Shown here in pieces: positions 20,485 through 41,258 of a stretch of 64,000 nucleotides of DNA. Below the pieces are notes generated by a model that was not told the DNA's origin, did no database searches, and saw only the letters and a program-made list of their open reading frames with translations. Both the position numbers and the translations under genes were made by a program. Position 1 is the stretch's first letter. Every line of letters begins with the position of its first letter. Origin of the DNA: an uncultured bacterium (GTDB taxonomy: Bacteria; Babelota; Babeliae; Babelales; Babelaceae); the NCBI GenBank assembly GCA_963848965.1, contig CAWKFG010000005.1, forward strand, positions 1 through 64,000, given 5' to 3'.

Positions 20485-20880
20485 CTAATTTTCAAAAGTA
20501 AACTCTATGTCTCCATTTTTCTCGATCATAATAATTGTATTTGGCTGCTGAATTATTACATCTACCCAATCATTAATAATTTTTAACATATGCTCTTTTG
20601 TAGTACTAAAGTAATTAAAGTATTCTTCTTCAGGATCCCATATAAAACCCGGATAAACTCTTCCCTTTTTTTCTCTCAAGCCATGTGCATTGCTAAAGGC
20701 TTCATTTTGCTCATACTTACCTTTAAGCCAATCAGTAAAGAAGTTATAACTTAAGTCCCCCATAATTGCACGTGCCAAAAACACACCTAGTATATATAAA
20801 GAATCATCGTTATAATCTACGATTGTATAATCTTTATATTGAGTTATTTTAAATCTTACAAAATGTACTCTACTTTCCAT
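20485..20880 (-). CDS. Putative cognate immunity protein of the EndoU toxin
   Basis: Small aromatic/acidic ORF overlapping the toxin gene end by 11 nt. Confidence 0.75.
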   Translation of the reverse strand: MESRVHFVRFKITQYKDYTIVDYNDDSLYILGVFLARAIMGDLSYNFFTDWLKGKYEQNEAFSNAHGLREKKGRVYPGFIWDPEEEYFNYFSTTKEHMLKIINDWVDVIIQQPNTIIMIEKNGDIEFTFEN

Positions 20881-23800
20881 AATATTTCCGTTCTAAAGGG
20901 ATGTTCCAATTACTATGAGTAGGATAAATTGAAATCACCTCAGCAGTTATCGAATTTATATACATTAAAAGAGAGCCATCTCTATAGGGTAATCTTACTT
21001 CAATTATCTTTTTAGGATCTGGCTTAAAGTTGCTAAAATCCATTGCTTGAAGGCTACTTACTACTTCTTTAATTACTTTCAGTGGCGAAACATCATTAGG
21101 AAAAAAAGACGATTCTTTTCGTTCATTACCGTGTTGAATTAATGCTCTATATAAACCACTAGGTTCTTCTTCTGGATGTAAAAACTTAATCTTCCCAGCT
21201 CTTTGTATAGTGCCCTTATAATCAAAGTGAAGGCCACCAATTTTGCCACATTTACTGATATCTAATTTAAAGAGATGATCCCAATTTATTTTTAAAGGTT
21301 TACTAAAACCCTTGACATGAATTTTACCATAAAGTCTATTACAAGCATTAATAACCGACATAAGATGATGTGCTTGCTTCGGGGTATTAACAATAGAGCA
21401 GATATCTTTTACTCTCTTTGCAAAACGCTCTTTTGAGATACCAGCTTTTTTTGCTTTTCTTTCAGAGCTTCTGAATGATCTTGTTTTTCTATATTTGCTT
21501 TCTAACTTTGCTGCACTCTGCTGTAATTGATGAAACTGATCTGTATTATTTGTACCTTGTGTAAAGGCATTAGTTACCTGAGGAAGAATATTTTTTTGTT
21601 TTGCACTTTCAATAAGACCAGCTATACTGCGCCACATAAATAAAGCATCAGCTATATCCATTCCTATTCTTACAGCAAATCTGCCAACATCATAAGGCTT
21701 GCCTTCTAAAGCAGCATTATACATTCCTGAAATATCGCTTAAATATTGCTCTGGTCTATTACATAGCGCATAACCAGTACCTATAATTTTTGCAGGTAAG
21801 CTAAGGTAAGGCACAAACCGTAAAAACTGTGTAGCTCGTGCTGAATTAGCAATAAATGGAGCTATTTTAGCTGCTACCGGCGCAGCGATTTTAGATCCTA
21901 CTGTTACTGTTGCAGCTATAGCCATAGATTCCAGTGTAGCATAACACCTACTGAGCATCTGCTGCGCAGTTTCGTCCCACATCCCCCGTAAAGCATTTCC
22001 TACACTTTGTAAAACTGCGTAAACTTCACGAGCTTCTTCAGTCTTATTTTGAGCATTAAGCCTTAATGACCACTCAGTAATGGTTTGAACAAGTAATTTT
22101 TCACCTTGCATATCTGGTACTTGAGAAAAGTCTTTTAAGGACTGAATTACTTGTTGTTGGAATTCAATTTGAGCTGGTCTGGACAAGGGCTCAATAAGAC
22201 TATCACAATGTATATTAAAGTTATTTGCAAGGCCAAGTAGTTGTGGATAATCCATACCAAAAGACTCTTTAAGCCGCTCGTTCCTAAATGCTGTTGATTT
22301 TTCCTTTAAGTAACCGTATGCAGTTCCTGCTCTTTGTTTGAGTAGATTATCAAGATATGGATTATAAGCTGTAAGATCTTGAGCTAACTTTCCAAGTTCT
22401 TCAACGTCTATGATAGTCTTATCGGGATTAACTGTGAATCCACCTTGCCTTGGTACAAATAGACTGTGCAATCGATTTGAAATTACTGTAGCAAGTTTTG
22501 CTTCTAACTCATCCTTTTGCTTAAGAGGTCTATTATATTCAAAAGTATAGTAACTTAAACGTGGATTCTCTCTCAGTTTTTGACCAATCTCTAACAATTT
22601 ATCATGATCAGCTTTTGTATAGTTTTTCTTAGCACAGTAATTATTAAGCGTACGGCTTAGCAGCTGAGCCTCAAGTCTTTGTTCCATTATTTCCGCTGCT
22701 CTTGTATTTAGATAAGCTAAAGCCTGAGGAGGAACCAAGTTTGCTAACTTTTTATCTTTAGCAACTGCAAGAATACGATCTTCAACTTTATGCCACATAC
22801 CTTTGTTAGCTATCTGCTTTTCTAACAAAGCACAATATGTTACAAAATGCGAATCACTAAAAGAAGAAGCCAATTTCCCTGCATCTAAGGCAGGAGCCAT
22901 AGGCAATACTCGCTCTATAGCATTTTCTATGTTAAAATTATTTTTAATATAGCTATACTGATCTGCTAATTGATTGCCCGTTGTAATTCTCGCTACCTCG
23001 CTACGCTCTTCTTGTGCAGTAGCCAAGGCTGGAAATTTTAAAATATTTTCAGGAGTCATCCCATCAAGAATTTTATTTATATCTTCTCGATCGTGAGGAT
23101 TTCTAATATTAAGCATAGCTCTTAAGCCGTTAAAGCTTATATGAATACATTGCTTTTGTAACTCTTTTTCGCTTTGAATATCAAAAACATCAGAAAGAAA
23201 TAAGTTGCGGTTTACAAAAGCTTCCATAACTTCTCTCGGTATCTCACGAAATTGTACTTGAGATACCTCTAAATTGCATCTACTTTCATATGTTTTAATA
23301 GTATTGACAAGCTCTATAGCATAAGGAGTCGGCTTAAGTGTTTCTTGCTTAATATAACATTCAATAGGTCTAAAAAATAACTTTGTCCTAGAAAACATTA
23401 TAACTGCCCCACGCTCACGTATGTAAAATTCAGAATCTAGCTTATTCATTGCAGCTCGGCAACTAGGAACTTCAAGTTCAAATCCCATTTTTTCAGCTCT
23501 TTTAAGAAGCTTTTTACAAAAATAAGGATTATGAGCATTTTGTAAAAGTGTTATGCTCATATACTCCTTAAGCTGTTGCTGTATTTCAGGTTGATTAATG
23601 AACTCTTCCTGACTCATTATCTCATAGTTCAATCTTACTGCCGAACTTTGAGCACGTTTCGCTTTAAATTCTTGCACAGCGAAAAGTTTTTTAGAGTCTA
23701 CAGAAACATCTTCTTCTAAATCTGAAAATGGCGCCAAAATACTATGCTTTTGAGGCCCCTCCTTTTGTGTTAGCGTATGCTTATTGGTAGATTTAGACGC

Positions 23801-25384
23801 TACATATTGGTTTACTGGAGTATTTTTTGGAAATAATAACACTTTAGAGTGACCATCATAATTTGCTTGCCCAAGCTGCTTTTGTAAGTTTTTTCTATAC
23901 GCTTCACATTCAGGCAGAAGAACTTCAGAAAATTTAGCGAATAAATTGAGAGCCTCTTGAGATTTACCTTCTACATTAAGCATATGAACATGATGAGCAA
24001 GTTTAACTAATAAATCAGCATGAATAGCAGCAGCGTTACCCTGTTGTGTAGGATTATCACAAGCATTTGCAAGAGTTTGTTCTACTTTAGCAAGTACACT
24101 CTTTAATTGATGATATACCAACTCTTGTCGTACAGATTTGACTTTACTCTCTGCTTCTTGAAGCACTTTTGTATATTCTTGAGCACTCCGCTTTGCCTTT
24201 GCTATCAAATCAGGTTTGCAAGCCTCTATATCTCTTCTTACAACAGTACACAGAAGGGTATCTAAATCAAAAGCACCAGGCATTGAGTACACTTTATCAA
24301 TAGTACTTACCAAGAATTCAAATGAACTTGTGTTATGAGAAGTTGTATTAAGCACTTCAGTTACCTTAGATACCAAGGTAGCCGCATCCTTAGGCTTGCC
24401 AGCAGCATTTAATATGTTACCAATATGTGCGGTTCTAAGAGCATACTGAAAAAGAACGTTATTCCGTTGAACCTCTTGAGACTTTAGACTATTATTGCTC
24501 TCCCTCATTTTAAAACTTCGAAATGCTAAGCCACACACGTGCTCTTGTACTTTCGCTTGCAACTCGTTCTGGTAAGAATGGGTAAAATCACTATAAAGAA
24601 TACCCTTGTCTGCTTGTATATTAGTAAGGGCGTAATAATACTCTTGAGCAAACTTTAAGTACATATGTTCTAATTTTCCGTTTCTCAATGCCGCAATAAT
24701 ATATCTAATTCCTTGCTCGATTTGACTTTTTGCTTCTTGATTAGAACTATCAAGTAAAAGAAAATAGTTAACGTAACGTAATATCTCTTTGCTTTTATGC
24801 TTTGAACTCTGTAATTGTATAAGCTGAGGAAATTCCTTAATCTTACTCTCTAATGGTTTTAAAATGCCAAATGAAGTAAAAAGCTCTTCATCTTTATAAG
24901 AATCGGTATCATCTATCACATAATCCACAACTTGCTTTACAGAAGAAATGTTCCTAAAGTCCTCAGTTGTTGAATCAAATAACATATGAACAAACTTTTT
25001 CAGTGGCTCATTTTTAAGAATTGTTAACTCTTTTTGCAATGCTCCATTCATTAGAGGATAGGCACAATCTTCAATAGTGAGCTCAGTTACCAAATCAAAC
25101 TTATTTTCTAATCTGCTCTCTGAAGAACTTTTAAGGACAGTATCATGTATATCAGATCCTTCCAGTACACTACCCTTAGAAGAAATACCCTCTTTTAATA
25201 TCCAATCCTGCAAACTGCAACCATCCTTATCTACTGCATAAGGATGCTCCGAGCAAAAAGCAATTAACTGTGCAAGTATTCTTTGCGAATCCTTTTTACT
25301 CATTTTTTGCATACTCATCCCAGTCAAAAATGGGATATAAAAAAAAGCTAGAAAACTCCAATAGCTTTTCTTTAACCATTTCAT
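20870..25384 (-). CDS. Large secreted polymorphic-toxin-like protein with a C-terminal bacterial EndoU-type RNase domain
   Basis: Signal peptide, long helical body, hydrophobic pre-toxin region, then WDHLF...GKIGGLH...SSFFPND...ISIYP (EndoU_bacteria pattern H...GGH...FFP...YP). Confidence 0.75.
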   Translation of the reverse strand: MKWLKKSYWSFLAFFYIPFLTGMSMQKMSKKDSQRILAQLIAFCSEHPYAVDKDGCSLQDWILKEGISSKGSVLEGSDIHDTVLKSSSESRLENKFDLVTELTIEDCAYPLMNGALQKELTILKNEPLKKFVHMLFDSTTEDFRNISSVKQVVDYVIDDTDSYKDEELFTSFGILKPLESKIKEFPQLIQLQSSKHKSKEILRYVNYFLLLDSSNQEAKSQIEQGIRYIIAALRNGKLEHMYLKFAQEYYYALTNIQADKGILYSDFTHSYQNELQAKVQEHVCGLAFRSFKMRESNNSLKSQEVQRNNVLFQYALRTAHIGNILNAAGKPKDAATLVSKVTEVLNTTSHNTSSFEFLVSTIDKVYSMPGAFDLDTLLCTVVRRDIEACKPDLIAKAKRSAQEYTKVLQEAESKVKSVRQELVYHQLKSVLAKVEQTLANACDNPTQQGNAAAIHADLLVKLAHHVHMLNVEGKSQEALNLFAKFSEVLLPECEAYRKNLQKQLGQANYDGHSKVLLFPKNTPVNQYVASKSTNKHTLTQKEGPQKHSILAPFSDLEEDVSVDSKKLFAVQEFKAKRAQSSAVRLNYEIMSQEEFINQPEIQQQLKEYMSITLLQNAHNPYFCKKLLKRAEKMGFELEVPSCRAAMNKLDSEFYIRERGAVIMFSRTKLFFRPIECYIKQETLKPTPYAIELVNTIKTYESRCNLEVSQVQFREIPREVMEAFVNRNLFLSDVFDIQSEKELQKQCIHISFNGLRAMLNIRNPHDREDINKILDGMTPENILKFPALATAQEERSEVARITTGNQLADQYSYIKNNFNIENAIERVLPMAPALDAGKLASSFSDSHFVTYCALLEKQIANKGMWHKVEDRILAVAKDKKLANLVPPQALAYLNTRAAEIMEQRLEAQLLSRTLNNYCAKKNYTKADHDKLLEIGQKLRENPRLSYYTFEYNRPLKQKDELEAKLATVISNRLHSLFVPRQGGFTVNPDKTIIDVEELGKLAQDLTAYNPYLDNLLKQRAGTAYGYLKEKSTAFRNERLKESFGMDYPQLLGLANNFNIHCDSLIEPLSRPAQIEFQQQVIQSLKDFSQVPDMQGEKLLVQTITEWSLRLNAQNKTEEAREVYAVLQSVGNALRGMWDETAQQMLSRCYATLESMAIAATVTVGSKIAAPVAAKIAPFIANSARATQFLRFVPYLSLPAKIIGTGYALCNRPEQYLSDISGMYNAALEGKPYDVGRFAVRIGMDIADALFMWRSIAGLIESAKQKNILPQVTNAFTQGTNNTDQFHQLQQSAAKLESKYRKTRSFRSSERKAKKAGISKERFAKRVKDICSIVNTPKQAHHLMSVINACNRLYGKIHVKGFSKPLKINWDHLFKLDISKCGKIGGLHFDYKGTIQRAGKIKFLHPEEEPSGLYRALIQHGNERKESSFFPNDVSPLKVIKEVVSSLQAMDFSNFKPDPKKIIEVRLPYRDGSLLMYINSITAEVISIYPTHSNWNIPLERKYYGK

Positions 25385-29145: not shown

Positions 29146-30156
29146 CTACTTTGCTCCATGCTTTAAAAGAAGTTGTTTAATGTTTGGATCCTTTGCTAAA
29201 CTTAAAGCAGTCTGATTATCTACATTTTTGACAGAAACATCAGCTTTACGAGCTAAAAGCTGCTCTAAGGCTTCAGGATTATTATAGAATGCCGCATATA
29301 TTAAGGGAGTATTACCCCTTTGATCTTGTGCATTAATATCTGCACCTGCATTAAGAAATATCTGTACCAAGTCTTTATCTCTTCTTTGTATAGCATGCAT
29401 GAGTGGAGTCATTTTATCTTGATCATGAACATTAACGTCTGCTTTAGCTTTAATAAGCATTTGCACTATATCTTTATAAACAACTGGCAGTAAAGCTGCA
29501 CTACCAGTACGTTGAGGTTGCTCTATTGTTGCATATATTAAAGCACTGTTACCAAATCTATCTTGACTATTAACATTGGCATTGGCATTAATAAGCATTG
29601 CTACTACATCTTTATTTTGGCGTAAGACAGCATTCATTAAGGCAGTTTTGCCGTTCATATCTTGCACATTAACATCAATGCCTTGAGCCAAAAGCTCTTT
29701 AACCTTGTCTAGATTTGCATCTATAAGCTCTAGCTGCTTCTGCCACGTTAAAGCTCCAGGAGTACCTAACGCTTTTGCTAGAGTACTCGCGGAGTCTGGT
29801 CGCTTGTTATATAAATCTGCAATAATAATTCTATTAAAATCTGGATCAGTAAATAGCGCACTAAAATTCTTATTCTGAGATAATTCTTTTAATTTCTTGA
29901 GAGCAGCTTCATATTTTAGGGATTTTATCTGATTCAATTGATCATAAAGACCTTTAAATAAAGGACTACCTGTTGAAGATGCCTCTTTAAGCTGTTTCAA
30001 TAAGTCATCAAACGTATAGAGAGCTTTGAAGTTTGCAATAAATTGTGAGATTTCACCTAGTAATTCTTTTGGCAAAAATTTAAAAAAACCTTCCGGCTCC
30101 ATCCCAAAAGCATTTATAAACAATCCTAGTGTTAAGGCACATAATTTTTTATTCAT
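29146..30156 (-). CDS. Secreted F-box-like + ankyrin repeat protein
   Basis: Signal peptide ...FGME, then FFKFLPKELLGEISQFI, then about 5 ankyrin repeats. Confidence 0.88.
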   Translation of the reverse strand: MNKKLCALTLGLFINAFGMEPEGFFKFLPKELLGEISQFIANFKALYTFDDLLKQLKEASSTGSPLFKGLYDQLNQIKSLKYEAALKKLKELSQNKNFSALFTDPDFNRIIIADLYNKRPDSASTLAKALGTPGALTWQKQLELIDANLDKVKELLAQGIDVNVQDMNGKTALMNAVLRQNKDVVAMLINANANVNSQDRFGNSALIYATIEQPQRTGSAALLPVVYKDIVQMLIKAKADVNVHDQDKMTPLMHAIQRRDKDLVQIFLNAGADINAQDQRGNTPLIYAAFYNNPEALEQLLARKADVSVKNVDNQTALSLAKDPNIKQLLLKHGAK

Positions 30157-30304: not shown

Positions 30305-33058
30305 TTAATGGACTCTACTATGATCCTCATCATCTTCAGTTTCAATCAAGTTATATTCTTGGCATCTTCTGTTAACAGAGGATCTATTAACGCCTAAGAG
30401 AATAGCAATCTTGTTTTGATTCTTAAACTTATTCCAAAGCATACTCATAATGTGAGGGTCCTTGAGAGCCTTTTTGCCCATACGAACAGCTTGTACCAAT
30501 TCTGGATCTGTTACATGATACGCTGGATCAAACTCTGTTGTTTCATACAGCTTATGTTTGGTAGACTTAGAGACAAGTAGCTGATGTACCTTCTCTTTTA
30601 ACTCTTGTAAACTGACCGGTCTTTGGCCTAAGAGCCTATCTTTATCTTTATCACTGAGTTGAATAAGATTCTTAAATGTCTCTGTCTTAAGAGCTTGATG
30701 GCTGAATCCTTCAGCAAGATCGGCAACTTCAGTATTTGGAAGTAATGCTAATGATGGCATCACTAGTGAGGCTTTTTTAAGCTCTTGGAATAATGCTTTA
30801 GAGAACTGCCCTTCTGCTACTAAGGTACTTATATTTTTAGAAGAAGAGCAAATGATACGAACATTGCTTACTACTTTATGATCACTTCTAAATTTATGAA
30901 AGTGCCCATAAACAATAAAGTCAGCAAGTGCTTGTTGTGTTTCAAGGCTTAAAAAATGAATGTTTTCTATAAACAAGGTACCATTATCAAGCTTAGAAAG
31001 TAACCCTTCTTCAGCAGCTCCTAAAAGAGGATTAAGGCCAAAGAGCTTTATTGCTATATCATGGTTCTTCTCTTGGCTGTGCAATTTAAGAACATGTAGT
31101 TGTTGGCGCATACTAATGTGATGTAATATCTCTACGGTAGGCATAATATCACCTTCTGCCATTTCTAGCAGAGTAGCTTTTTTACTTAAAGAGACTTCTA
31201 GCATAGCTATCTTAAAATTAAGAAGCTTTTCTCCAGAGCCAGGAATAAGCTGGTTAATAAGCTGTCCTGAGCTTGTTGTTTCTAAGTAAAGAATATAATC
31301 CCATTTTGATGGATCTTTAAGGAGCTCAAATTGTGCTCTCATAATATCTGATACTTCAGGATAATAAAGCATAATAATAACAGTATTATGTTCAAGACTT
31401 GGAATACCAGTAGCTACCACTTTATTACCCTGTTCATCATAGGCAAAAGTACTTTGTACGGTCTTATATTCTTGTATTTTACGACACAAGTTTTTAAGTG
31501 CTACAGCAAGAGGATGTCCTTGCTCTGCATTGATATCTGCACCTATAAGCTCTTGAGCTGCTTCATTTGCATAACTAAATCTTCGTGCTTTATAAAAGAC
31601 AATGCCAATCTTTCTCTCTTTATGAGAGCGTAAGAATGATCGAATACTTTCTTTATAATGGTTAACCTCTTGATGTTTAGCATATAGTTCTTCTTGCAAT
31701 TCCTTTTCCATCTGTTGAAGAGCATCAAGGTTACTGTATTTAAGAAGGTTAATAACATTACTTAAATAGCTGGTAAATACAAGCATTTCATCGCGCTCTT
31801 TACTTGTATACAGCCTTCCAGGGCGAGCATCATGCTCTACAATAATATATGCAGAGATAGCTTTACGCTCATAAATAGGTAAAAAGATGTCAGCATTAAT
31901 ACTGTCTAAAAATGCTACTATCTCATCTCTTTGTTTTGCCTCTTCATAAAAATTAGTAAACTCAATCTCATCTTTAATAAATATCTTCCATTGATATAAA
32001 CTTGTAACAAGATCGCTTGGTAATTCATGTCGTGCTAAAAACTTTTCTACCTTGTCTTGTGTATGAACAATATCATGATAAAGGTTATTTTTATTGTCTT
32101 GAGGAGCTTCTTCTTGTCGTATATAGAGTCTGACACGCCCTAAAGGTACTTCAAATGCTCGTTCAAAAAAGGTTTGGGTAAGTTGTGAAAGCTCTTTGAG
32201 CGATGTTACATAGCTCAGCTGTTCTAAAATGTCCTTAAAATCAATGATAAAATTAAACCTCTCTTTTGATTCTACATGGTTTTTCAAGTTTAAGAAACGA
32301 AGGCCTATCGTTCTTCTGATAGAGTAATATATTGCAATATTTGTAAGCAATTCTCGTCCTAATGTAATTACTCGCCGATCAAGCAAAAACCACGTGTGAA
32401 GATACGAAAGAAAATACGTAAAGTTAGCAATTTCTATAAGAAGAAGAGGTATAAGAAAACACCGTATTACTATCTTTAATTGACTTGAAAGAATAGAAGG
32501 AAGTATACCTTGCTTAATCTTATAAAAAATTTGATATACTGCTGAAAGTAAAAGAGGGATAAGATAGAACTTACTCATCTGGATCACAGTGCTTTCAGAA
32601 GGAATATCTACCATTTCATATCTAAATGCAGCTGTAAATGCATAATAACCACAAAATAAACTACTTATAACAAAAAATAGATAATCACCCACATCTAAAG
32701 TAAAATCTTTTTTCGCTAAATTCTTTATAAAAAGTGTAAGAGCATAATAACGTACTATAAAGAAAAACCAAGCAATACGACCTGCAAAAGCAATAAAATT
32801 TACCGAATAGCTAAGGCCAAAGACATATTTAGACAAACGAATGATCCATGATACATCATGTACAAGAAAACCAACAATAATAAGAGCAAATAAAAGTATT
32901 AGCTTTTTTGAAATATAGTTTGTATGAAAACTTTTACTTAACAAAAAGGTAAAAAGACCTAGCTTAAAAAGAAAAGAAACGTAGGTCAGGAACAAAAAAA
33001 ATGACGGAGCCGTTACTACATCATAAAAATTATTGATAAATTGAATAATGTACAACAT
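30305..33058 (-). CDS. Membrane-bound one-component regulator: about 7 TM, GAF, PAS-like, degenerate sigma54-activator AAA, Fis-type HTH
   Basis: Hydrophobic first 250 aa. GAF end FLPIY...YTSKERDEML. PAS-like YANEAAQELIG. GTLFIENI...Q..L...NVRIICSS...GQF...LF..L. C-terminal NQNKIAILLGVNRSSVNRR. Confidence 0.85.
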   Translation of the reverse strand: MLYIIQFINNFYDVVTAPSFFLFLTYVSFLFKLGLFTFLLSKSFHTNYISKKLILLFALIIVGFLVHDVSWIIRLSKYVFGLSYSVNFIAFAGRIAWFFFIVRYYALTLFIKNLAKKDFTLDVGDYLFFVISSLFCGYYAFTAAFRYEMVDIPSESTVIQMSKFYLIPLLLSAVYQIFYKIKQGILPSILSSQLKIVIRCFLIPLLLIEIANFTYFLSYLHTWFLLDRRVITLGRELLTNIAIYYSIRRTIGLRFLNLKNHVESKERFNFIIDFKDILEQLSYVTSLKELSQLTQTFFERAFEVPLGRVRLYIRQEEAPQDNKNNLYHDIVHTQDKVEKFLARHELPSDLVTSLYQWKIFIKDEIEFTNFYEEAKQRDEIVAFLDSINADIFLPIYERKAISAYIIVEHDARPGRLYTSKERDEMLVFTSYLSNVINLLKYSNLDALQQMEKELQEELYAKHQEVNHYKESIRSFLRSHKERKIGIVFYKARRFSYANEAAQELIGADINAEQGHPLAVALKNLCRKIQEYKTVQSTFAYDEQGNKVVATGIPSLEHNTVIIMLYYPEVSDIMRAQFELLKDPSKWDYILYLETTSSGQLINQLIPGSGEKLLNFKIAMLEVSLSKKATLLEMAEGDIMPTVEILHHISMRQQLHVLKLHSQEKNHDIAIKLFGLNPLLGAAEEGLLSKLDNGTLFIENIHFLSLETQQALADFIVYGHFHKFRSDHKVVSNVRIICSSSKNISTLVAEGQFSKALFQELKKASLVMPSLALLPNTEVADLAEGFSHQALKTETFKNLIQLSDKDKDRLLGQRPVSLQELKEKVHQLLVSKSTKHKLYETTEFDPAYHVTDPELVQAVRMGKKALKDPHIMSMLWNKFKNQNKIAILLGVNRSSVNRRCQEYNLIETEDDEDHSRVH

Positions 33059-33063
33059 GATTA

Positions 33064-33105
33064 TTGACTTTCTCTCCTAAGTCACATATATTAGTTGTTA
33101 AGTCA
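33064..33105 (+). promoter_or_regulatory. Promoter of the peptide gene overlapped by a TGACTT-N8-AAGTCA palindrome and a repeated TAAGTCA
   Basis: TTGACT (33064)-17-TATATT (33087). TAAGTCA at 33078 and 33099, 21 nt apart. Confidence 0.45.
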
Positions 33106-33162
33106 TCATACCATGAATCTGCATAAGTGTATATCTAATTTTTATACTCGAAGGAGTTCTCT

Positions 33163-33339
33163 ATGCACAGCATCACTTTAAAGCTTAAAGCGGTAGCAGT
33201 GACACTTCTTATTGGTACTTTCTTATCGACATCTTATATGCTTAGTAATACGGCATGTAATAAGATAAAAAAGGAAACACCCTCCACCGAACAGAACAGT
33301 TTTAGAGACGAACCACCTTGGGACGGTTTAGGGTATTAA
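33163..33339 (+). CDS. Unannotated 58-aa secreted peptide precursor
   Basis: AAGGAG RBS. MHSITLKLKAVAVTLLIGTFLSTSYMLSNTACNKIKKETPSTEQNSFRDEPPWDGLGY*. A terminator follows the stop codon. Confidence 0.75.
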   Translation: MHSITLKLKAVAVTLLIGTFLSTSYMLSNTACNKIKKETPSTEQNSFRDEPPWDGLGY

Positions 33340-33347
33340 AAAATGAC

Positions 33348-33381
33348 AAGCTCGTACTCATAAAAAGTACGAGCTTTTTTT
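33348..33381 (+). terminator. Intrinsic terminator after the peptide gene
   Basis: AAGCTCGTACT-cataaaa-AGTACGAGCTT followed by a T-run. Confidence 0.8.
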
Positions 33382-33388
33382 ATGTCTA

Positions 33389-34264
33389 TCAAAGTGTGTA
33401 AAGATTCTTTTCTTCCTTTACGAAGCCTTCTTTTATAAGCTCCTGTAAAACTTCATGTATTTCCTGTTCTTCTCGCTTAGTACATTTTACTAATTTCTGA
33501 AACGTTACACATTGAGCTTTTACAAGCTCTTTGATAATCATACCACGAAGCTGACGTCGAGAACCTTCAAACTTTGATTGTATAGTATAATGAGCACTTT
33601 TGCGACTTGGATTCTTAAATTTCTTTTTAAGCATAACACCATAATCCATAAGAGCATAATACCATATACGTGCTTGTTCTCTGTCTACCGTTTGCTCTAT
33701 CAAAGGATATAAAGCTTTATCGCTTACTTCTTGAGCATCTGGAAAGAAGTGATGAATAAATACTGTACGAATATTTGTTTCTATAAATACTGTAGGTTGG
33801 TTAAAAGCAAAAGCACAAATAGATGCTGCTGTAGCAGCGCCAATGCCCTTAAACGTTTGCAATATCTCAGGATCTTGAGGAATAGTACCACTATACTCTG
33901 CAATAATCCTTTGACAAAGTGTATGAAGAGCAAGCGCACGTCGATTGTAACCAAGACCCTGCCAGACTCTCAATACTTCAGCTGCCGAAGCTGCTGCTAA
34001 CTGCTCAATGCTCTTAAATGTAGAAATAAACTGCTCATACTTTTCCTTAACTCGCTCAGTTTGCGTTTGCTGAAGCATAATTTCTGAAACAATAATATGG
34101 TAAGGATTTTGTGTATCACGCCATGCAAATTCTCTTTTATGCTCTCTATAATAAGAATAAATAAGAGTACGAAAATGCTGTATTCCCTCTTGCGCAAGTA
34201 CACCATCTACTAGAAAGTACTGTAAACTGCTAGAAGATAATGAATCTAAAAAACTCATTTGCAT
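33389..34264 (-). CDS. mutY: A/G-specific adenine glycosylase, short form
   Basis: WRDTQNPY.I.VSEIMLQQTQ, WQGLGYNRRA, HhH GIG..TA, ETNIR and ALMDYG. No Fe-S cysteine cluster or NUDIX-like domain is visible. Confidence 0.88.
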   Translation of the reverse strand: MQMSFLDSLSSSSLQYFLVDGVLAQEGIQHFRTLIYSYYREHKREFAWRDTQNPYHIIVSEIMLQQTQTERVKEKYEQFISTFKSIEQLAAASAAEVLRVWQGLGYNRRALALHTLCQRIIAEYSGTIPQDPEILQTFKGIGAATAASICAFAFNQPTVFIETNIRTVFIHHFFPDAQEVSDKALYPLIEQTVDREQARIWYYALMDYGVMLKKKFKNPSRKSAHYTIQSKFEGSRRQLRGMIIKELVKAQCVTFQKLVKCTKREEQEIHEVLQELIKEGFVKEEKNLYTL

Positions 34265-34266
34265 GT

Positions 34267-36726
34267 TTACTCACCTGTAGTTTGTCTATTGTTTGCTTGT
34301 TGAGCAGGTTGTCTTGGTGATATTCTAAAGGTATCTCTTTTAAGGTCATCATATGCTATATGAATAACGTCCTCTTCTGGCCTCATCTCAATGCGCCTTA
34401 CTTTTATAGAAGACATATGTTCTGTGCTAGAGACTGCACCAGTATATATATTCCAAAATCTTACTGTTCCATCTTCACTTGCAGAAATGAGAGTTTCATA
34501 TTTGCTATAATACTCTATATGAGTTACCGGTCCTGTATGACCTCCAAATACTCTCAGACATGTGCCATTCTTTCTATCCCAAATGCGGATTGTACCATCA
34601 TCAGAACACGAAGCAAGAGCCCTTATAATCTCAATACCATCATTCAGAGTCAAGAGCTTCATATCATTTACTCTTTTCGTGTGACCTATGAGCGTTTTTC
34701 GTAAAGCACCTTCATCTGTTCCCCACTTATGAATAGTTCCATCTCCTGCCCCTGTAAAAAGAGCAGTAATAGTTTTATCATAGACCATAGACCATACAGG
34801 GTGTGTATGCCCTTTTAAAACAAAACGGCACGCATTTGTCTTCAAATCCCACAGTCGTACAGTACAGTCATCTCCTCCTGATGCTAACATATTATAATCT
34901 TTTAAAAAGCATAACGACCATATATATCCTTTGTGCTCTGCAGGAAGCTTAAACTGCCTTAAACCTCCTTTATTTATCAAAATAAAAGGCCCGTCACCAA
35001 GAAAAATAAGAGCGTCTGATTCAGTAAGTGATTCACATAAAATAGCCGTTACATCTTCTCGTAACGTTAAACTACTGACAGAACTAATATCTGTACCATA
35101 ACGAATAGAAGGACAATGAGACCTTATAAAAGTAGATGGTACTGGCTGTCGTCTAACAGAAGAAGTTTCAGTGGTTGCAGAAATCTGCTCACTCACTGCA
35201 AAACGTTTCCAAACTTGTACTGTATTGTAATCACTGATTACAAAAAGAGTACTTCCATCACTACTTATTTTTATGTGTAACGGTTTGTTTCCTGTAGTTA
35301 CAGGAAACTGCTGTTGTCCTTTTGTAGCAACAACTACAACTTCACCTGAAACATAAGCACACGCTAAGTAGTGTCCGTCATAAGTCCAATCAACACAAGA
35401 AATAATTTCAGATCCATTTTTAACAAGTGGCACAGGCAATGTAGTACATAACTTAAGATTATGAGGGCGGCCTAAAAATACAGAAGCCCCTTGAGGATCT
35501 ATAAAGCTACAAGAAAGAGCATCTTTCTCATGGTTCGAAGCACGCATAATATCAGTACAATCGCCAGATTCTCTATTCCATACTTTTACAGAACCATTTT
35601 TTGTAACACCGTAAATCTTTTTGCTATCAGTACTAAATTGTAGTGCGATAATTGTTCCTATAACAGGTCCTTTCGCTATAGTTTTCATACGGCCTGTTCC
35701 TGTATCCCAACATAATAAGTATTTTGAGCCTTCATGCTCTACGGTAGCTGCAAATAAAGAACAGTCAGCATTAAAGGTACCACACGAAGTATTGGTAACC
35801 CACATTTTTCCTTCTCTCTCCATTTGAAGATGAAAAGGAGCTTCATCAAGCAAGCATACTTTTATAATACCTGTAAGAGTAACTACGAAAAGCTCTTGAT
35901 TTTTTTCATTCCATCCAACTAAAGGGCCATGAGTTCGAGTAAGATAAGGCTTTACTTTATCAGCAAGCTCTTTAATAGCTATACAAGTACCTTGTGCAGT
36001 ATCCCACACATACATATAGTTTGATGAAAGAGAGATAAGACGATTTCCATCAGCAGTACAAAAAACAAACTGTAGTGGTGTCTCGTCTTGATGACCTTCT
36101 AAAGCTGTATGACTCAACGAACTTATACATGACCATTTATAGACCGCAGCATCCACTGATGTTTCTTGTGTTGATACTTCGTTCTTGTCTAGTACAGGCT
36201 CCTTTTTCTTTTTTGGTTTACGCTTTTTTCGAGCACTTTCTTGTGCAAAAACAGCTCCCTTTGCAGATCTTTCTTTTATAAGATTGGTAAGATTACTTGC
36301 AGCACACCCATCTCCCTTGTCTCTTCCCTTATTAAGGTATTCTATTGCTTGCTCTCGTTTACCAAGATGTAAATAAGCTACTGCCAAGTTATTATACAGG
36401 GGAAGGATATCTACCTCACTATAAAAGCGAAGAACCCGTAAAAAATAGCTTTTTGCATCCTTATAACGTTCTTGTTTAAGATACACAAGCCCGAGGGAAT
36501 ATAAAGCATATGCTCGTTTTATACTATCTTTGCTCTCGGTAGCAATTTTATCAAAACATTCTATAGCTTCTTTATACTTTTGTTGTTGAACATACGAGAT
36601 CCCCGCTGTATACAGAGATTCATCTGAAGCTGGCTGTTGCTCTTTTTCCATACCAGTAAGAGCACAAAATCCACCGCTTATTCCTATCAGCAAAAATGTT
36701 TTATAATACAAGCTTTTTATAGTCAT
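34267..36726 (-). CDS. Secreted TPR + WD40 repeat protein
   Basis: Signal peptide ...TGME, about 3 TPRs, a basic RKKRKPKKKK stretch, many GH...S.D..WD repeats. Confidence 0.88.
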   Translation of the reverse strand: MTIKSLYYKTFLLIGISGGFCALTGMEKEQQPASDESLYTAGISYVQQQKYKEAIECFDKIATESKDSIKRAYALYSLGLVYLKQERYKDAKSYFLRVLRFYSEVDILPLYNNLAVAYLHLGKREQAIEYLNKGRDKGDGCAASNLTNLIKERSAKGAVFAQESARKKRKPKKKKEPVLDKNEVSTQETSVDAAVYKWSCISSLSHTALEGHQDETPLQFVFCTADGNRLISLSSNYMYVWDTAQGTCIAIKELADKVKPYLTRTHGPLVGWNEKNQELFVVTLTGIIKVCLLDEAPFHLQMEREGKMWVTNTSCGTFNADCSLFAATVEHEGSKYLLCWDTGTGRMKTIAKGPVIGTIIALQFSTDSKKIYGVTKNGSVKVWNRESGDCTDIMRASNHEKDALSCSFIDPQGASVFLGRPHNLKLCTTLPVPLVKNGSEIISCVDWTYDGHYLACAYVSGEVVVVATKGQQQFPVTTGNKPLHIKISSDGSTLFVISDYNTVQVWKRFAVSEQISATTETSSVRRQPVPSTFIRSHCPSIRYGTDISSVSSLTLREDVTAILCESLTESDALIFLGDGPFILINKGGLRQFKLPAEHKGYIWSLCFLKDYNMLASGGDDCTVRLWDLKTNACRFVLKGHTHPVWSMVYDKTITALFTGAGDGTIHKWGTDEGALRKTLIGHTKRVNDMKLLTLNDGIEIIRALASCSDDGTIRIWDRKNGTCLRVFGGHTGPVTHIEYYSKYETLISASEDGTVRFWNIYTGAVSSTEHMSSIKVRRIEMRPEEDVIHIAYDDLKRDTFRISPRQPAQQANNRQTTGE

Positions 36727-36966: not shown

Positions 36967-39603
36967 TTAGACACGACCTGCTCGTATTTTTACAAGTTTG
37001 TCAGTAGAAAGGTATTTTTTTACCGTCTCTTGCATCTGATCAATGGTAATGGAAGTAAGCTGTGAAGCACGGGTATCAAAATAATCTTGTGGAAACTGAA
37101 ATTTATCTTTAAATAATGCAGTAACAGCTATTTGGTGATTAGAGCTAAAATTATCTACCAACGAGTTTATAATAGCTTTTTGTGCTTCCTCAAACTCTTG
37201 TGCTGATACTTCATTAATTGCAGTGTTAATAACATGCGCTATAGCAGCTTCTGCTTCTTTAAGACGATCATTTGAGACGATTGTTCTTACTACGACAAGT
37301 CCTTTTTGCGTATCAACACGAGAAATTAAAGAGCCACCAATTGTGTAAAAGAGCCCTGAACGTTCTCGCAAATCAAATAATCGAGAACTCATTGAGCCTA
37401 AAACACCACCAGTAAAAATTTGATCAAAAAGCAGAAGCTTATCATAATCAGGATCTGTTCTTGTTACCGATAAACCTGCATAAGAAAGAACTGTTTGATC
37501 TCGTATAATGTGGTAATTTATCTCTTGAGGTCGTACCGGCTCTAACTGCGGATAATCAAGATCTACCACTTCCGATCCGGTCCAACGAGAAAGCATGTGT
37601 TCTAAGACTTCTTTAGTTTCATAACGCTCTAAGTCTCCTACTATCGCCAACCGTGCTGCTCGTGGACTTAAATAACGTGTATAAAAATCAAGTAGGTGCT
37701 GCTTCGTAATAGCCTTGACCCCTTCAAAGGTTCCCAGAATATTCTTACTATAAGGATGGTTTTTATATACCTCTTGTCGCGCTAATTGACCGACAAATTG
37801 TGAAGGGCTATCCCAAAACTGCTGTAATTCAGCAATCATCTGCGCTCGTACCTTCTCAATAGAATCTTCTTTAAAGGCTGCTTGTGTAAGAATCTCATTA
37901 AGTAGTTCAAGACCTTTAGGAAGATCTGCAGCCAGTAAGCTTAATGTTACTTGTCCTGAACCAGCTTGTAATGACATACCATAGGATTCAAGCACATCAG
38001 CAAATTCAGATGCTGAGTAATTTTTAGTACCTTCTAAAAGAAGTGATGCAGTAAAAGAGCTCAGTCCCTCTAAACCTTGAGGATCATAATAATGTTTTGC
38101 TTTAAAATCTAAAATAATATCTATTTTAGGAAGCAGTTGATTATTGTAATAAAGCACCTTAAGTCCATTACTTAAATGCCATGTCTGTGATCGAGGGAAT
38201 TCAAATGGTTTTGGTGGTCGAACTTCAATTGAATAAACACACTTACCTTCCTCAATTTCAGTATGTCGTACTTTTCCTTTGAGAATTCGCTCATCTTCCT
38301 CATCAGAAATCTGTTGCAAATGAAGCCAATATGTTTTTTCTTTTTCATGTAAAGGTAATACCTGAGCCATATTCATACCAGAAGAGCGTAAATACGTAGA
38401 AACAAAATCTTTTATCTCTTGTTCAAGATGCTCTTTAGGGTAATCAGTAAAGGTATAGAGAAACTGCTCATTACCAGTAGCTAAATAATATTTACCTATG
38501 TTGTATGCCTGCTTTTGGTTATTTTCAAGCAATGCAAGATAAGAAACTTCAGTTTTTTTAATTGCTCTTGTTACTTCAGCTTCTTCCACCCCTTTATGTG
38601 CTATTGCGTCAAGCTCTTCATGAATAATGGAGAAAATACGATCAATATCTTCGCTCTTTTTTGGCTGGAAGTAGACAAAGAAAACACCATAATCAAAAAG
38701 ATCATAGTTAAAAACATCAAGCTCAGTAACAAGCTGTAGACCATCAACAAGCCGCTTATATAACCTTGAGCCCTTACCAGAGCCTATAATCCAAGAGACT
38801 ACATCAATAAGATAATCTTTTCCTTTACGAGCACCTGGTATAATCCACGCTCCTATAACCATAGGCTGCTTGATATCTCGATAGAGAGTAACAGTGTAGT
38901 TTCGCAAATCAGGTGAATGGTAATACTGTACTGGTTGATACTTTTCATCAGCAGGAATATTACCAAACTCTTTATGAATATTTTTCAGCGCCTCATCAGG
39001 ATCAACATCACCTACAATAACGAGGGTTGCATTATTAGGTACATAGTGATGACGATAGAATGCTACAAGAGCTTCACGCTCTAAGCCCCATAGATCTTGC
39101 TTATAGCCAATAATAGGATGATGATAGGGATGATCATAAAAAATAGCTGAAAGTAGATGCTCAATCATGCTTGAAACATAATCATCCTTATACATTTTGA
39201 GCTCTTGAATAACAGCTTTCAGCTCAGAGTTTAGAAAATCTTGTTTAAATGTGCAATTACGCATACAATCAGCCATGATAGGCAGCGCTTCTTGCCAGTG
39301 TTGTGAAGGAAAGTCAAAGAGATATCCTGTATAATCATATGAAGTAAATGCATTACAGTACCCAGAAAGCTTATGAGTAATAAGGTTAATATCGCATTCT
39401 GAAAGTATTCCTGTACCTTTAAAAATCATGTGTTCAATAAGATGCGCTATCCCTTTTTCTCCACTTTTTTCATCTTTTGATCCTACATTGTACCATAGCT
39501 GAGTTGATACTTTAGGAATAGTTCGTCGTGGTACAATGAGTACTGTCATACCATTAGCTAAAATCTGTTTAAGAACGCGGGGCCGTTGCATACCTATCCT
39601 CAT
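36967..39603 (-). CDS. M16 family zinc peptidase (fused alpha/beta form)
   Basis: GIAHLIEHMIFKGT (HxxEH) and NAFTSYDYT, with a second inactive M16 half. Confidence 0.92.
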   Translation of the reverse strand: MRIGMQRPRVLKQILANGMTVLIVPRRTIPKVSTQLWYNVGSKDEKSGEKGIAHLIEHMIFKGTGILSECDINLITHKLSGYCNAFTSYDYTGYLFDFPSQHWQEALPIMADCMRNCTFKQDFLNSELKAVIQELKMYKDDYVSSMIEHLLSAIFYDHPYHHPIIGYKQDLWGLEREALVAFYRHHYVPNNATLVIVGDVDPDEALKNIHKEFGNIPADEKYQPVQYYHSPDLRNYTVTLYRDIKQPMVIGAWIIPGARKGKDYLIDVVSWIIGSGKGSRLYKRLVDGLQLVTELDVFNYDLFDYGVFFVYFQPKKSEDIDRIFSIIHEELDAIAHKGVEEAEVTRAIKKTEVSYLALLENNQKQAYNIGKYYLATGNEQFLYTFTDYPKEHLEQEIKDFVSTYLRSSGMNMAQVLPLHEKEKTYWLHLQQISDEEDERILKGKVRHTEIEEGKCVYSIEVRPPKPFEFPRSQTWHLSNGLKVLYYNNQLLPKIDIILDFKAKHYYDPQGLEGLSSFTASLLLEGTKNYSASEFADVLESYGMSLQAGSGQVTLSLLAADLPKGLELLNEILTQAAFKEDSIEKVRAQMIAELQQFWDSPSQFVGQLARQEVYKNHPYSKNILGTFEGVKAITKQHLLDFYTRYLSPRAARLAIVGDLERYETKEVLEHMLSRWTGSEVVDLDYPQLEPVRPQEINYHIIRDQTVLSYAGLSVTRTDPDYDKLLLFDQIFTGGVLGSMSSRLFDLRERSGLFYTIGGSLISRVDTQKGLVVVRTIVSNDRLKEAEAAIAHVINTAINEVSAQEFEEAQKAIINSLVDNFSSNHQIAVTALFKDKFQFPQDYFDTRASQLTSITIDQMQETVKKYLSTDKLVKIRAGRV

Positions 39604-39663: not shown

Positions 39664-40554
39664 TTATACAATTCTTTTAAGGCTGCGTGCTATCGCAACT
39701 GCTTTAAGAGCACTGAGCTCTTTATCCTTGATCTCAAGCATAATATCAAAGTCAAGTTCTTTTGTCGCTTCTAAAAAAGCTTTAAAGTGCTCTTCATTAA
39801 TAGTTTGAACATGTTTGCCCACCCTGTTACCAGGAGCTTGGCTACTATAATCGATCATGCCACTACCATCATGCACATTCCATGTCCCCAGCGCCAATTG
39901 TAACGCCTCTACAAGCGGCTCGCCATTATGTAAACACTCATGATGTAGAGTGTCAAAAAGTATAGGTATTCCTGTATGTTCGTGCAAAAAAAGGCAGTCT
40001 TTTAATGAATATGATCGCTCATCATTTTCAAGAACAAGTCTGCGTTTTACTTTATCACTCAAGGTATGATACGTAGAGATAAATCTTTTAAGAGCTTCCT
40101 CTTTATTGCCATAGACACCTCCACCATGAATTTGCATCTTTGCAGAGGTATCTAGTCCTAGGCTATCTAAAACAGTTGCATGATATTCAAGCTCTCGTAT
40201 ACTGTTTTGCACTATTGTAGAATCTGGTGAATTAATAACCACAAACTGATCAGGATGCATAGAAATCCGCAAGTTATGCTTTTTAATATAGTCACCAAGA
40301 GCAGCAAATTTAGGAGCAAAAAATTTTACCCAATCAAAATCAATAACCGAATGAGAAGCAAATGGCACTAAACAAGAACTTATTCTAAAAAAAAGTAATC
40401 CCATCTTTACATTGTATTCTAAAATTTGCTGCAGTGCATCCAGATTAGCATGTACTGTAGACACAAGTCGTGCAGAAGAATAGGAGCTTAACCGAAATGT
40501 TCGATTAGCACAACAGCCAAGTGACGTATTAATGCATGGATATCCAATCTTCAC
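39664..40554 (-). CDS. uvsE: UV DNA damage endonuclease
   Basis: IGYPCIN, FRISS, SMHPDQF, LENDE, FDTLHH and DIMLEIKDKE. Confidence 0.93.
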   Translation of the reverse strand: MKIGYPCINTSLGCCANRTFRLSSYSSARLVSTVHANLDALQQILEYNVKMGLLFFRISSCLVPFASHSVIDFDWVKFFAPKFAALGDYIKKHNLRISMHPDQFVVINSPDSTIVQNSIRELEYHATVLDSLGLDTSAKMQIHGGGVYGNKEEALKRFISTYHTLSDKVKRRLVLENDERSYSLKDCLFLHEHTGIPILFDTLHHECLHNGEPLVEALQLALGTWNVHDGSGMIDYSSQAPGNRVGKHVQTINEEHFKAFLEATKELDFDIMLEIKDKELSALKAVAIARSLKRIV

Positions 40555-41258
40555 TTGTTTCCACTTTGTTTTATTATTCCTTGCAATAAACTTCTTAAAC
40601 CGGCATTTTTAAGTTTTTCAAGCATCTGAGTAAAAGCTGGCATTTGTGAGTATGCAGGCTTGGCTATACTTTTTATAGCAGCTACATGCAAAGCGCTATT
40701 ACCCGTTTTATCTTTAATATTTGGATCTGCTCCTGCAGCTAATAAAAGGTTTACTAAAGCAAACTGGTCAAGCTCTATTGCTCGATATAAGGGAGTTTCT
40801 CCACCTTCATTTTGTGCATTAATATCTGCTTTATTCTGAAGAAGTAACTTTACCATGTCTATATTCCCTGAAACAATAGCTCCATGCAAAGGAGTTTCTC
40901 CGTAGTGAACCTTAACATTACTATTTGCGCCTTTTTCAAGCAGGAACTTTGCCCTCTCAAGAGATCCTATTGTAGCTACCAAAAAGAGCTCTTCTGGATG
41001 AGCTTTAATATAATTTCTTGTAAAAGCCTCAATCGTAGCTGGGCTATCAATAAGAGCCTTAAACTTTTTATTAACTACTCTTAATGCTTTAAGCTTTTTC
41101 AAAGCTGCCTCAAGTGATGGTCCCTCGTATATGAAAGAAATGATAAGTGCTTTTACCTCTTTTGGTAAAGTATCCCAGCTAGGTTGAACTGGCGTCATAC
41201 TATAAGAACTCGTATAGAGAAAAGTAATAATAAGTATAATTATGAATGTGTTTTTCAT
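40551..41258 (-). CDS. Secreted F-box-like + ankyrin repeat protein
   Basis: SWDTLPKEVKALIISFI...LRVVNKKFK, followed by GETPLH repeats. Confidence 0.88.
   Translation of the reverse strand: MKNTFIIILIITFLYTSSYSMTPVQPSWDTLPKEVKALIISFIYEGPSLEAALKKLKALRVVNKKFKALIDSPATIEAFTRNYIKAHPEELFLVATIGSLERAKFLLEKGANSNVKVHYGETPLHGAIVSGNIDMVKLLLQNKADINAQNEGGETPLYRAIELDQFALVNLLLAAGADPNIKDKTGNSALHVAAIKSIAKPAYSQMPAFTQMLEKLKNAGLRSLLQGIIKQSGNK

Follow-up and report, generated by a model that had tools for sequence, protein, structure and literature searches.

A divergently encoded Pro-Pro mini-peptide and a seven-helix membrane regulator probably form an undescribed signalling pair in Dependentiae

The stretch of DNA analysed here, hereafter the window, comprises 64,000 nt of an uncultured bacterium of the Babelaceae (contig CAWKFG010000005.1 of assembly GCA_963848965.1, positions 1 to 64,000, forward strand), whose genome (G000) amounts to 1.73 Mb and is 88.7% complete. 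Near its middle the gene for a 917-amino-acid (aa) membrane regulator and an open reading frame (ORF) for a 58-aa product lie back to back, with start codons 104 nt apart, and the locus raises the question of whether so small an ORF is a gene at all and, if so, what it has to do with the regulator beside it. Comparison of homologous loci gives good support to a conserved, phylum-specific cassette of two genes in Dependentiae, one for a peptide and one for a receptor, and these two genes probably form a signalling pair that has not been described. The elements of the locus are as follows:

30305..33058, minus strand: gene (ORF) for the 917-aa membrane one-component regulator, with a predicted seven-helix sensor, two cytoplasmic alpha/beta modules, a pseudo-AAA+ module and a helix-turn-helix (HTH)
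33064..33092, plus strand: sigma-70-type promoter-like site of the peptide gene, TTGACT-17-TATATT; the -35 element begins 6 nt from the receptor start codon
33065..33084, no strand: palindrome TGACTT-N8-AAGTCA, overlapping the -35 element and the spacer
33151..33156, plus strand: ribosome-binding site AAGGAG, 6 nt ahead of the ATG of the 58-aa ORF
33163..33339, plus strand: 58-aa pre-peptide gene (ORF)
33307..33336, plus strand: codons for the C-terminal ten residues, with an acidic / Pro-Pro / aromatic motif
33348..33376, no strand: bidirectional intrinsic terminator with a stem of 11-12 bp and a T-run on each strand; it separates the peptide gene from a convergent HhH-GPD gene

The pairing of the two genes was followed in receptor loci gathered from related genomes, a species-level genome collection and metagenomes. 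A first filter, which required a hydrophobic N-terminus and Pro-Pro and was applied to 38 loci, retained 34 of 155 small ORFs on the strand divergent from the receptor and 0 of 151 on the receptor strand; genome-wide in G000 it passed 21 ORFs in 313,780 nt. Since the Pro-Pro condition makes this filter circular, a second filter without any proline condition was used, demanding that the ORF start with ATG, have a Shine-Dalgarno-like word and contain a hydrophobic 11-mer among its first 40 residues, the ORF being sought within 400 nt in 114 distinct receptor loci with at least 400 nt of upstream sequence. A divergent mini-ORF is found in 92 of these 114 loci and a receptor-strand one in four, compared with a genome-wide background in G000 of 0.10 such ORFs per search window and strand. 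When the receptors are joined into single-linkage clusters at 60% identity, 47 of the 62 clusters have a divergent ORF and three a same-strand one. The start codons of mini-ORF and receptor are separated by a median of 85 nt, and the median length of the 92 mini-ORFs is 36 aa. The Pro-Pro motif, which lies outside the second filter, is present among the final 12 residues in 73 of these 92 mini-ORFs and in two of 151 comparable background ORFs. A look at the flanks of homologous receptors for a short signal-peptide-like ORF with a conserved C-terminal motif had been proposed along with the original prediction of a peptide-signalling module, and these counts speak in its favour. Paralogous receptors within one genome (e.g. 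the four of G002) pair with different peptides, and some loci (L005, L022, L026, L007) hold two or three tandem copies of the peptide gene. As a separate observation, contig 1 of G000 carries at 342518-343951 (minus strand) three or four tandem ORFs of 64-89 aa without an adjacent receptor gene; their signal-peptide-like N-termini are near-identical, their ribosome-binding sites are good, and two of them have Pro-Pro soon after the hydrophobic part.

Matches to the receptor occur in 33 of the 41 related genomes, frequently as several copies, and its named database matches all belong to Dependentiae, Babeliales or Babela massiliensis. The database proteins closest to the window receptor have 77% (P0001) and 65% (P0002) identity; the genome and metagenome scans returned no full-length receptor on DNA closer than about 50-57% identity to that of the window. 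Some receptor genes contain in-frame stops (L010, on contig 1 of G018, with one TAG and two TAA, and several others) next to an intact divergent mini-ORF, and these may be pseudogenes or assembly errors.

The products of the mini-ORFs share a simple layout. Most are 25-40 aa long and carry only some six residues (acidic, x, P, P, x, x) behind a segment resembling a signal peptide; one to three basic residues (Lys or Arg) precede the hydrophobic core, of median 14 residues, in 86 of 92. Among the 73 members with a terminal Pro-Pro, an Asp or Glu stands at most four residues before it in 44; counted from this acidic residue, the tail most frequently comprises exactly six residues, its commonest pattern being acidic, A/G, P, P, G/M and one more residue, and typical tails are DAPPGW, EMPPGC and DLPPMS. 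Gly, Ser or Ala directly precedes the acidic residue in 24 of these 44, above a background of 19%, which favours signal-peptide character. This layout is suggestive of a Sec signal peptide attached to a predicted mature peptide of about six residues. The differences among four 36-aa members are distributed over the three codon positions as 100/54/125, which fits coding DNA. Among the longer members of the family, which databases list as hypothetical proteins, is the 62-aa one of Babela massiliensis; three members of 26-37 aa were not found in a collection of 15 billion proteins; gene callers overlook members of 20-37 aa. In the product of the window, residues 1-31 are signal-peptide-like (two Lys and a 12-residue hydrophobic core) and are followed by Cys32, a polar spacer and, at residues 49-58, a tail with the acidic / Pro-Pro / Trp motif, so that by its layout this product is a long variant of the motif class found throughout the family. 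The 58-aa ORF is called as a gene, without a name, in the protein collection; a search with the peptide against 5.8 billion proteins at E<=10 returned only itself, which makes it an orphan at the sequence level.

Counterpart of the peptide gene, the regulator was modelled with AlphaFold2 on the basis of 65 family members (mean predicted local distance difference test score, pLDDT, 87). In the model, residues 2-252 form seven long helices, which are followed by an alpha/beta module (270-441), a long helix (444-478), a PAS-like module of five strands (485-577), an AAA+ module (583-835) and four helices (852-901). The corresponding positions in the window are:

32303..33058, minus strand: seven-helix membrane domain, residues 1-252, predicted N-terminus outside and C-terminus inside, GPCR-like fold in the model
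31736..32251, minus strand: first cytoplasmic alpha/beta module, residues 270-441, from the secondary structure of the model
31328..31606, minus strand: PAS-like module, residues 485-577, five strands and two helices in the model, preceded by the long helix 444-478
30554..31312, minus strand: degenerate AAA+ module of the enhancer-binding-protein type, residues 583-835
30356..30505, minus strand: C-terminal HTH region, residues 852-901, four helices in the model

The about seven transmembrane segments claimed originally thus appear as seven membrane helices. A model of the membrane domain by itself, built on 72 sequences, reaches a pLDDT of 90 and a predicted TM score of 0.87. The best 50 Foldseek matches of this domain are all entries for G protein-coupled receptors (GPCRs), with E-values of 1.4e-3 to 4.7e-2 and TM-scores of 0.36-0.60, and the best 50 matches from VIA-align, which is independent of Foldseek, are nearly all GPCR entries or GPCR-like designs, with one TMEM87A among them (Z 14.2-16.2, root-mean-square deviation 3.6-6.7 A, 213-253 residues aligned, identities 5-13%). 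As helical bundles can reach Z scores of about 13-14 without kinship, the likeness is taken at the level of the fold and homology is not claimed; at that level, the modelled membrane domain shares the GPCR-like seven-helix fold. No Pfam family matches it at E<=10, and no sequence kinship to GPCRs or to bacterial seven-helix receptors was found. A profile of the domain searched against 1.84 billion representatives retrieved its own family only, with 412 matches, the best 150 of which are proteins of about 900 aa or shorter pieces. The protein atlas gave weak leads for residues 1-265, namely unnamed clusters at 0.91 and, at 0.89, a cluster with HisKA_7TM on 21% of its members. Lys and Arg number 1.8-2.5 per sequence in loops 1, 3, 5 and after helix 7, and 0.2-0.6 in loops 2 and 6, a positive-inside pattern which indicates an outer N-terminus and an inner C-terminus. 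The membrane domain evolves faster than any other part of the receptor, its mean pairwise difference being 0.70 compared with 0.48 in the remainder, and residues in the outer half of helices 2 and 3 are conserved within it: D68 in 51, W71 in 53, R94 in 57 and W97 in 66 of 72 sequences.

The cytoplasmic part fits the original prediction unevenly. A GAF domain had been proposed and finds no backing, as the isolated first alpha/beta module has no Pfam match to GAF and a family profile of residues 258-600 gave 0 matches at E<=10 among PDB sequences. The PAS-like character of the second module is seen in the five-strand pattern of the model, whereas in sequence the PAS_8 family is sub-threshold, with an E-value of 0.044 and under its curated cut-off. 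A scan of the whole protein against Pfam yields the sigma-54 interaction domain PF00158 as the sole match (residues 644-764, E 9.4e-13, profile positions 41-166 only); HisKA and HATPase families are absent from the regulator in the Pfam and NCBIfam scans, and TPR families in the Pfam scan. NCBIfam models for PspF, NtrX, TyrR, DhaR and AtoC match the regulator, all far under their family cut-offs, and with the full-length models of TyrR, DhaR and AtoC the alignment extends as far as the DNA-binding C-terminus (TyrR over residues 646-910, with 50 bits against a cut-off of 576). These alignments and the four helices of the model agree with the Fis-type HTH that had been assigned, which is not recovered by Pfam, where the last 111 residues match no HTH family at E<=10. 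The HTH region is the most conserved part of the regulator, with invariant or nearly invariant columns at 861-899.

In the AAA+ module, the description as a dead relative of sigma-54 activators is borne out. Foldseek places it with NtrX, NtrC1, PspF, FlrC, VpsR and LuxO at E-values of 1e-9 to 1e-7. Compared to Aquifex NtrC1 (1NY6), the module has a GAFTGA loop shortened by gaps and replaced, E-N instead of the D-E pair of Walker B, and other residues in place of both arginines of the FREDLYYRL stretch. The Walker A region fails to align with NtrC1, the alignment beginning past the P-loop just as the Pfam match begins at profile position 41, and the family consensus has no glycine-rich stretch resembling the well-known P-loop consensus of Walker A. 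These replacements are family-wide, as I697 and N699 are nearly invariant across the receptors. A search for the DNA-binding domain of sigma-54 (PF04552) detected it in none of the 41 related genomes covered, G000 included, and did detect it in 4 (E. coli, B. subtilis, Caulobacter, Bacteroides) of the 14 named genomes used as controls; literature on Dependentiae with sigma-54 was sought and none was found. By its alignments the module is thus homologous to PF00158 but has lost the catalytic and sigma-54-contact motifs, and the lost motifs together with the apparent absence of sigma-54 imply that it cannot act as an enhancer-binding ATPase. The family illustrates a route by which a sigma-54 activator may outlive sigma-54 as a pure scaffold.

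Parts of this architecture recall known systems, each of which differs from it in some respect. TyrR, NtrX and VpsR, sigma-54-independent relatives, likewise combine an AAA+ fold with a C-terminal HTH and have lost the GAFTGA loop, but they are soluble and still bind nucleotide, whereas here Walker A, Walker B and the arginine fingers are replaced and a seven-helix anchor is present. Sensor and DNA-binding domain are also united in one membrane protein in ToxR, CadC and BcrR, which bind DNA at the membrane; theirs are one to four helices and an N-terminal winged-helix or Xre-type domain, in contrast to the seven N-terminal helices and the putative C-terminal Fis-type HTH seen here. As a functional analogy, the Agr and Com systems (AgrC/AgrD, ComD/CSP) also place a small precursor gene beside a multi-helix sensor, and there too hypervariability affects the sensor domain as well as the peptide, and peptides differ from one paralogous pair to another. 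The present receptor differs in being a one-component DNA-binding protein rather than a histidine kinase, its putative ligand in carrying a Sec-like signal, and its bearer in being a diderm intracellular parasite; no dedicated processing or export gene was seen in the flanks of 1.2-1.5 kb. The RRNPP systems (Rgg/SHP, ComR/ComS, Rap/Phr) resemble the cassette in their very short precursors, often encoded divergently from the receptor gene. RRNPP precursors are about 20-45 aa long, the active part being the C-terminal 5-9 residues, often starting from an acidic residue. Their receptors are cytoplasmic TPR proteins that need the peptide to be imported, unlike the membrane-embedded receptor with a predicted GPCR-like fold described here. 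Peptide pheromone systems have been described mainly in Gram-positive bacteria, where kinases or cytoplasmic TPR receptors are used. Finally, a seven-helix input is joined to a cytoplasmic output in 7TMR-DISM, LytS/BtsS-type and HisKA_7TM proteins, and the abstract of one report describes BtsS as a seven-helix receptor (PMC10653868). The present membrane domain, in contrast, matches none of their families in Pfam at E<=10, and its output is a pseudo-AAA+ module with an HTH and not a kinase or cyclase. The original statement that no system of this architecture had been described agrees with the literature searches, in which titles and abstracts yielded nothing describing the receptor-peptide family, quorum sensing in Dependentiae included.

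The region between the two genes bears on how they may be connected. The promoter-like site TTGACT-17-TATATT is present as had been indicated, and by itself it does not exceed chance, such matches numbering three in this stretch against 2.4 expected in shuffled sequences. A sigma-70-type promoter on the peptide strand occurs, however, in 59 homologous intergenic regions, where the commonest hexamers are TTGATC and TATACT with a 17-nt spacer, the -35 element starts a median of 9 nt from the receptor start and the -10 element ends a median of 45 nt before the ATG of the peptide gene. It is from this recurrence of the same layout that the match in the window gains its weight. One subfamily (L043, L105, L106, L112, L115, L116, L121, L123) presents a case of its own: in the first 45 nt beside the receptor start the promoter region is almost identical, its 17-nt spacer included, and the rest of the intergenic region varies. 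Read on the peptide strand the -10 element there is TATACT, and read on the receptor strand it is TATAAT, displaced by a few bases; the two promoters of this subfamily may overlap and compete. At the other end of the peptide gene, terminator-like sites number two against 0.3 expected in shuffles. The strong terminator seen by the original prediction is confirmed as a hairpin followed by a T-run, but not as the peptide gene's own, since it works in both directions and is shared with the HhH-GPD gene that converges on it from 33389-34264 (minus strand). The product of this gene is a 291-aa protein (PF00730, E 6e-16) with a weak winged-helix-like C-terminus.

In the reading preferred here, the receptor would have the released peptide as its own ligand and would control the divergent promoter shared by both genes; as a whole this reading comes near to an even chance without quite reaching it. 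The peptide gene would be read from its own sigma-70-type promoter abutting the receptor start codon, and its product would be little beyond a Sec-type signal peptide and a short Pro-Pro peptide, with a mature form of about six residues (acidic, x, P, P, x, x) in most relatives and of 27 residues, with the same motif at its end, in the window. Export and cleavage would set the peptide free in the periplasm, and its small size might let it leave the cell as well. The neighbouring seven-helix domain of GPCR-like fold would sense it from the outer face, where the conserved Asp68/Trp71 and Arg94/Trp97 occupy the outer half of helices 2 and 3. The signal would pass through the two cytoplasmic alpha/beta modules to the dead AAA+ module, which would serve just as a scaffold or oligomerisation device, and the C-terminal HTH would act at sigma-70 promoters, most likely at the shared divergent one, closing an autoregulatory loop. 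Export, cleavage, binding, the promoter target and the biological meaning, which may lie in autocrine, density or confinement sensing inside the host, are what we infer from the layout of the cassette.

Several observations weigh against this reading. At the presumed cleavage point, the residue at -1 (the one before the acidic residue) is small in just 24 of 44 members, and position -3 is mostly occupied by L/V/F/I, chiefly by Leu, which is untypical for signal peptidase I; precursors of 25-40 residues are also short for Sec export. In the window product the motif lies 17 residues from Cys32, and an Asn stands at -3 of the putative cleavage site. A predicted complex of the membrane domain with the 58-aa peptide, run without controls, scored 0.02 against a mark of 0.32 and speaks neither for nor against binding. 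Divergence of the tails shows a partial correlation of 0.09 with that of the membrane domain (permutation p 0.065) and of 0.13 with that of the cytoplasmic part (p 0.02), and since the partial Mantel correlation is no better with the former than with the latter, there is no signal of co-evolution specific to the membrane domain. As to the pairing itself, the strict filter is not passed by 22 of the 114 loci, although inspection by eye shows in several of them a candidate at a greater distance, of lower hydrophobicity or of shorter length, and the receptor loci are related, so that the counts do not represent independent events. Control of the shared promoter meets a further difficulty: across loci only the promoter hexamers and a few bases around the -35 element are conserved and the spacer is not, and 6-mer enrichment and position profiles recovered just the -35 and -10 elements and no conserved operator. 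The palindrome, noted originally together with a second TAAGTCA (33099-33105), does lie over the promoter; having been picked post hoc, it has one exact copy in G000 against 0.2 expected and four copies with at most one mismatch against 7 expected. It occurs in none of the other 37 receptor upstream regions scanned and is for this reason not established as an operator.

A first alternative is that the mini-protein is never released and acts as an inner-membrane regulatory subunit or a tethered ligand of the receptor, in the manner of MgrB, a small membrane protein acting on a sensor kinase. The pairing statistics fit such a partner as well as they fit a secreted ligand, the Pro-Pro motif stands 1-4 residues past the hydrophobic segment in most members and would be held at the membrane surface, and very short precursors may insert without Sec. 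The hydrophobic core, by a crude run-length measure, has however a median of 14 residues and reaches at least 19 in only 4 of 78 members of at most 46 aa, which is short for a stable membrane span. Longer members show a small-x-small pattern followed by a polar part of 15-30 residues, and repetition of the motif two or three times within one precursor (L003, L017, L011) suits released units better. An unreleased partner is judged unlikely.

The chance is about equally small that the peptide is merely the main target of the regulator, exported with a job of its own at the envelope or on host domains of the WW, SH3 or EVH1 type, the seven-helix domain sensing something else. Such host domains bind Pro-rich motifs, some tails are PPxY-like (e.g. 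L002, L006, L005), and these intracellular parasites are rich in eukaryote-like repeat proteins. A divergent layout with an abutting promoter is, moreover, typical of a regulator and its target, and the lack of specific co-variation between tail and membrane domain agrees with it. The commonest tails do not fit PPxY, however, and without a dedicated secretion system in the vicinity a peptide of six residues has no obvious way into the host cytosol; whenever the receptor has been duplicated, each copy has retained or renewed a peptide gene of its own, as cognate pairs do.

Much less probable still is a role of the mini-ORF in cis, as a leader or arrest peptide whose Pro-Pro stalling would control a downstream gene, the link to the receptor being mere synteny. 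This was considered because 64 of the 92 mini-ORFs (in L003, L006, L008-L018 and others) are closely followed by a co-directional nth-like (HhH-GPD) gene of about 215 aa. A Pro-Pro flanked by D/A/G and G/W belongs to the class of motifs whose stalling depends on EF-P, and a hydrophobic N-terminus with a C-terminal arrest motif is the layout of SecM and MifM. The other 28 mini-ORFs, that of the window included, have no nth-like gene within at least 700 nt downstream, and the ORF of the window is followed by a terminator and a convergent gene, whose HhH-GPD product differs from the nth-like one. Conversely, 0 of 7 nth-like loci without a receptor (G000 and six receptor-less genomes) have a hydrophobic ORF with Pro-Pro upstream, one of the seven having an unrelated hydrophobic ORF without Pro-Pro. 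The distance from Pro-Pro to the stop codon also varies, from 0 to about ten residues. A leader of the nth-like gene was rejected in view of these loci, and the mini-ORF travels with the receptor and not with the neighbouring repair gene. In G000 the nth-like gene lies elsewhere (C1:312486-313076), on another contig, the ancestral neighbourhood being broken up in this genome; in other loci a xerC/D-like recombinase and a penicillin-binding-protein-like gene are often found further on, downstream of the receptor.

The idea that the 58-aa ORF is open by mere chance, the intergenic DNA being AT-rich, for which one could cite its lack of any sequence relative but itself and promoter-like matches no commoner than in shuffles, has next to no likelihood and is already contradicted by the comparative counts for strand, background and Pro-Pro, besides its strong Shine-Dalgarno sequence and terminator.

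If the released-ligand reading is true, a mini-peptide set free by Sec and read by a receptor-transcription factor of GPCR-like fold would be a new circuit design, and one in a diderm bacterium. Only a handful of transcriptional regulators are named for Chromulinavorax in passages of its genome paper, which give quorum-sensing mechanisms as absent in that species (PMC6561590). Dependentiae genomes being reduced, a conserved and often duplicated sensor-peptide pair would be among the few environmental switches of these bacteria. A wider proposal would see here an unrecognised peptide signalling of the Dependentiae, in which a Pro-Pro hexapeptide released by its signal peptide, private to each paralogue and read by a receptor-transcription factor of GPCR-like fold, reports confinement or number in the host vacuole and times the developmental cycle; this is speculative and, taken with all its parts, rather doubtful. 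The question is directly testable, as Babela massiliensis carries the pair. This species has been isolated and grown in amoebae.

Among the other genes of the window, a 1504-aa ORF without a Pfam family at E<=1e-5 lies at 20870-25384 (minus strand), and an 878-aa M16 (insulinase/pitrilysin-type) peptidase is encoded at 36967-39603 (minus strand), 3.6 kb from the cassette; peptidases of the M16 type cut small peptides. Eukaryote-like repeat proteins are encoded near the cassette at 29146-30156, 34267-36726 and 40551-41258, all on the minus strand, and comprise two ankyrin-repeat proteins and an 819-aa protein with TPR and WD40 repeats and a signal-like N-terminus.

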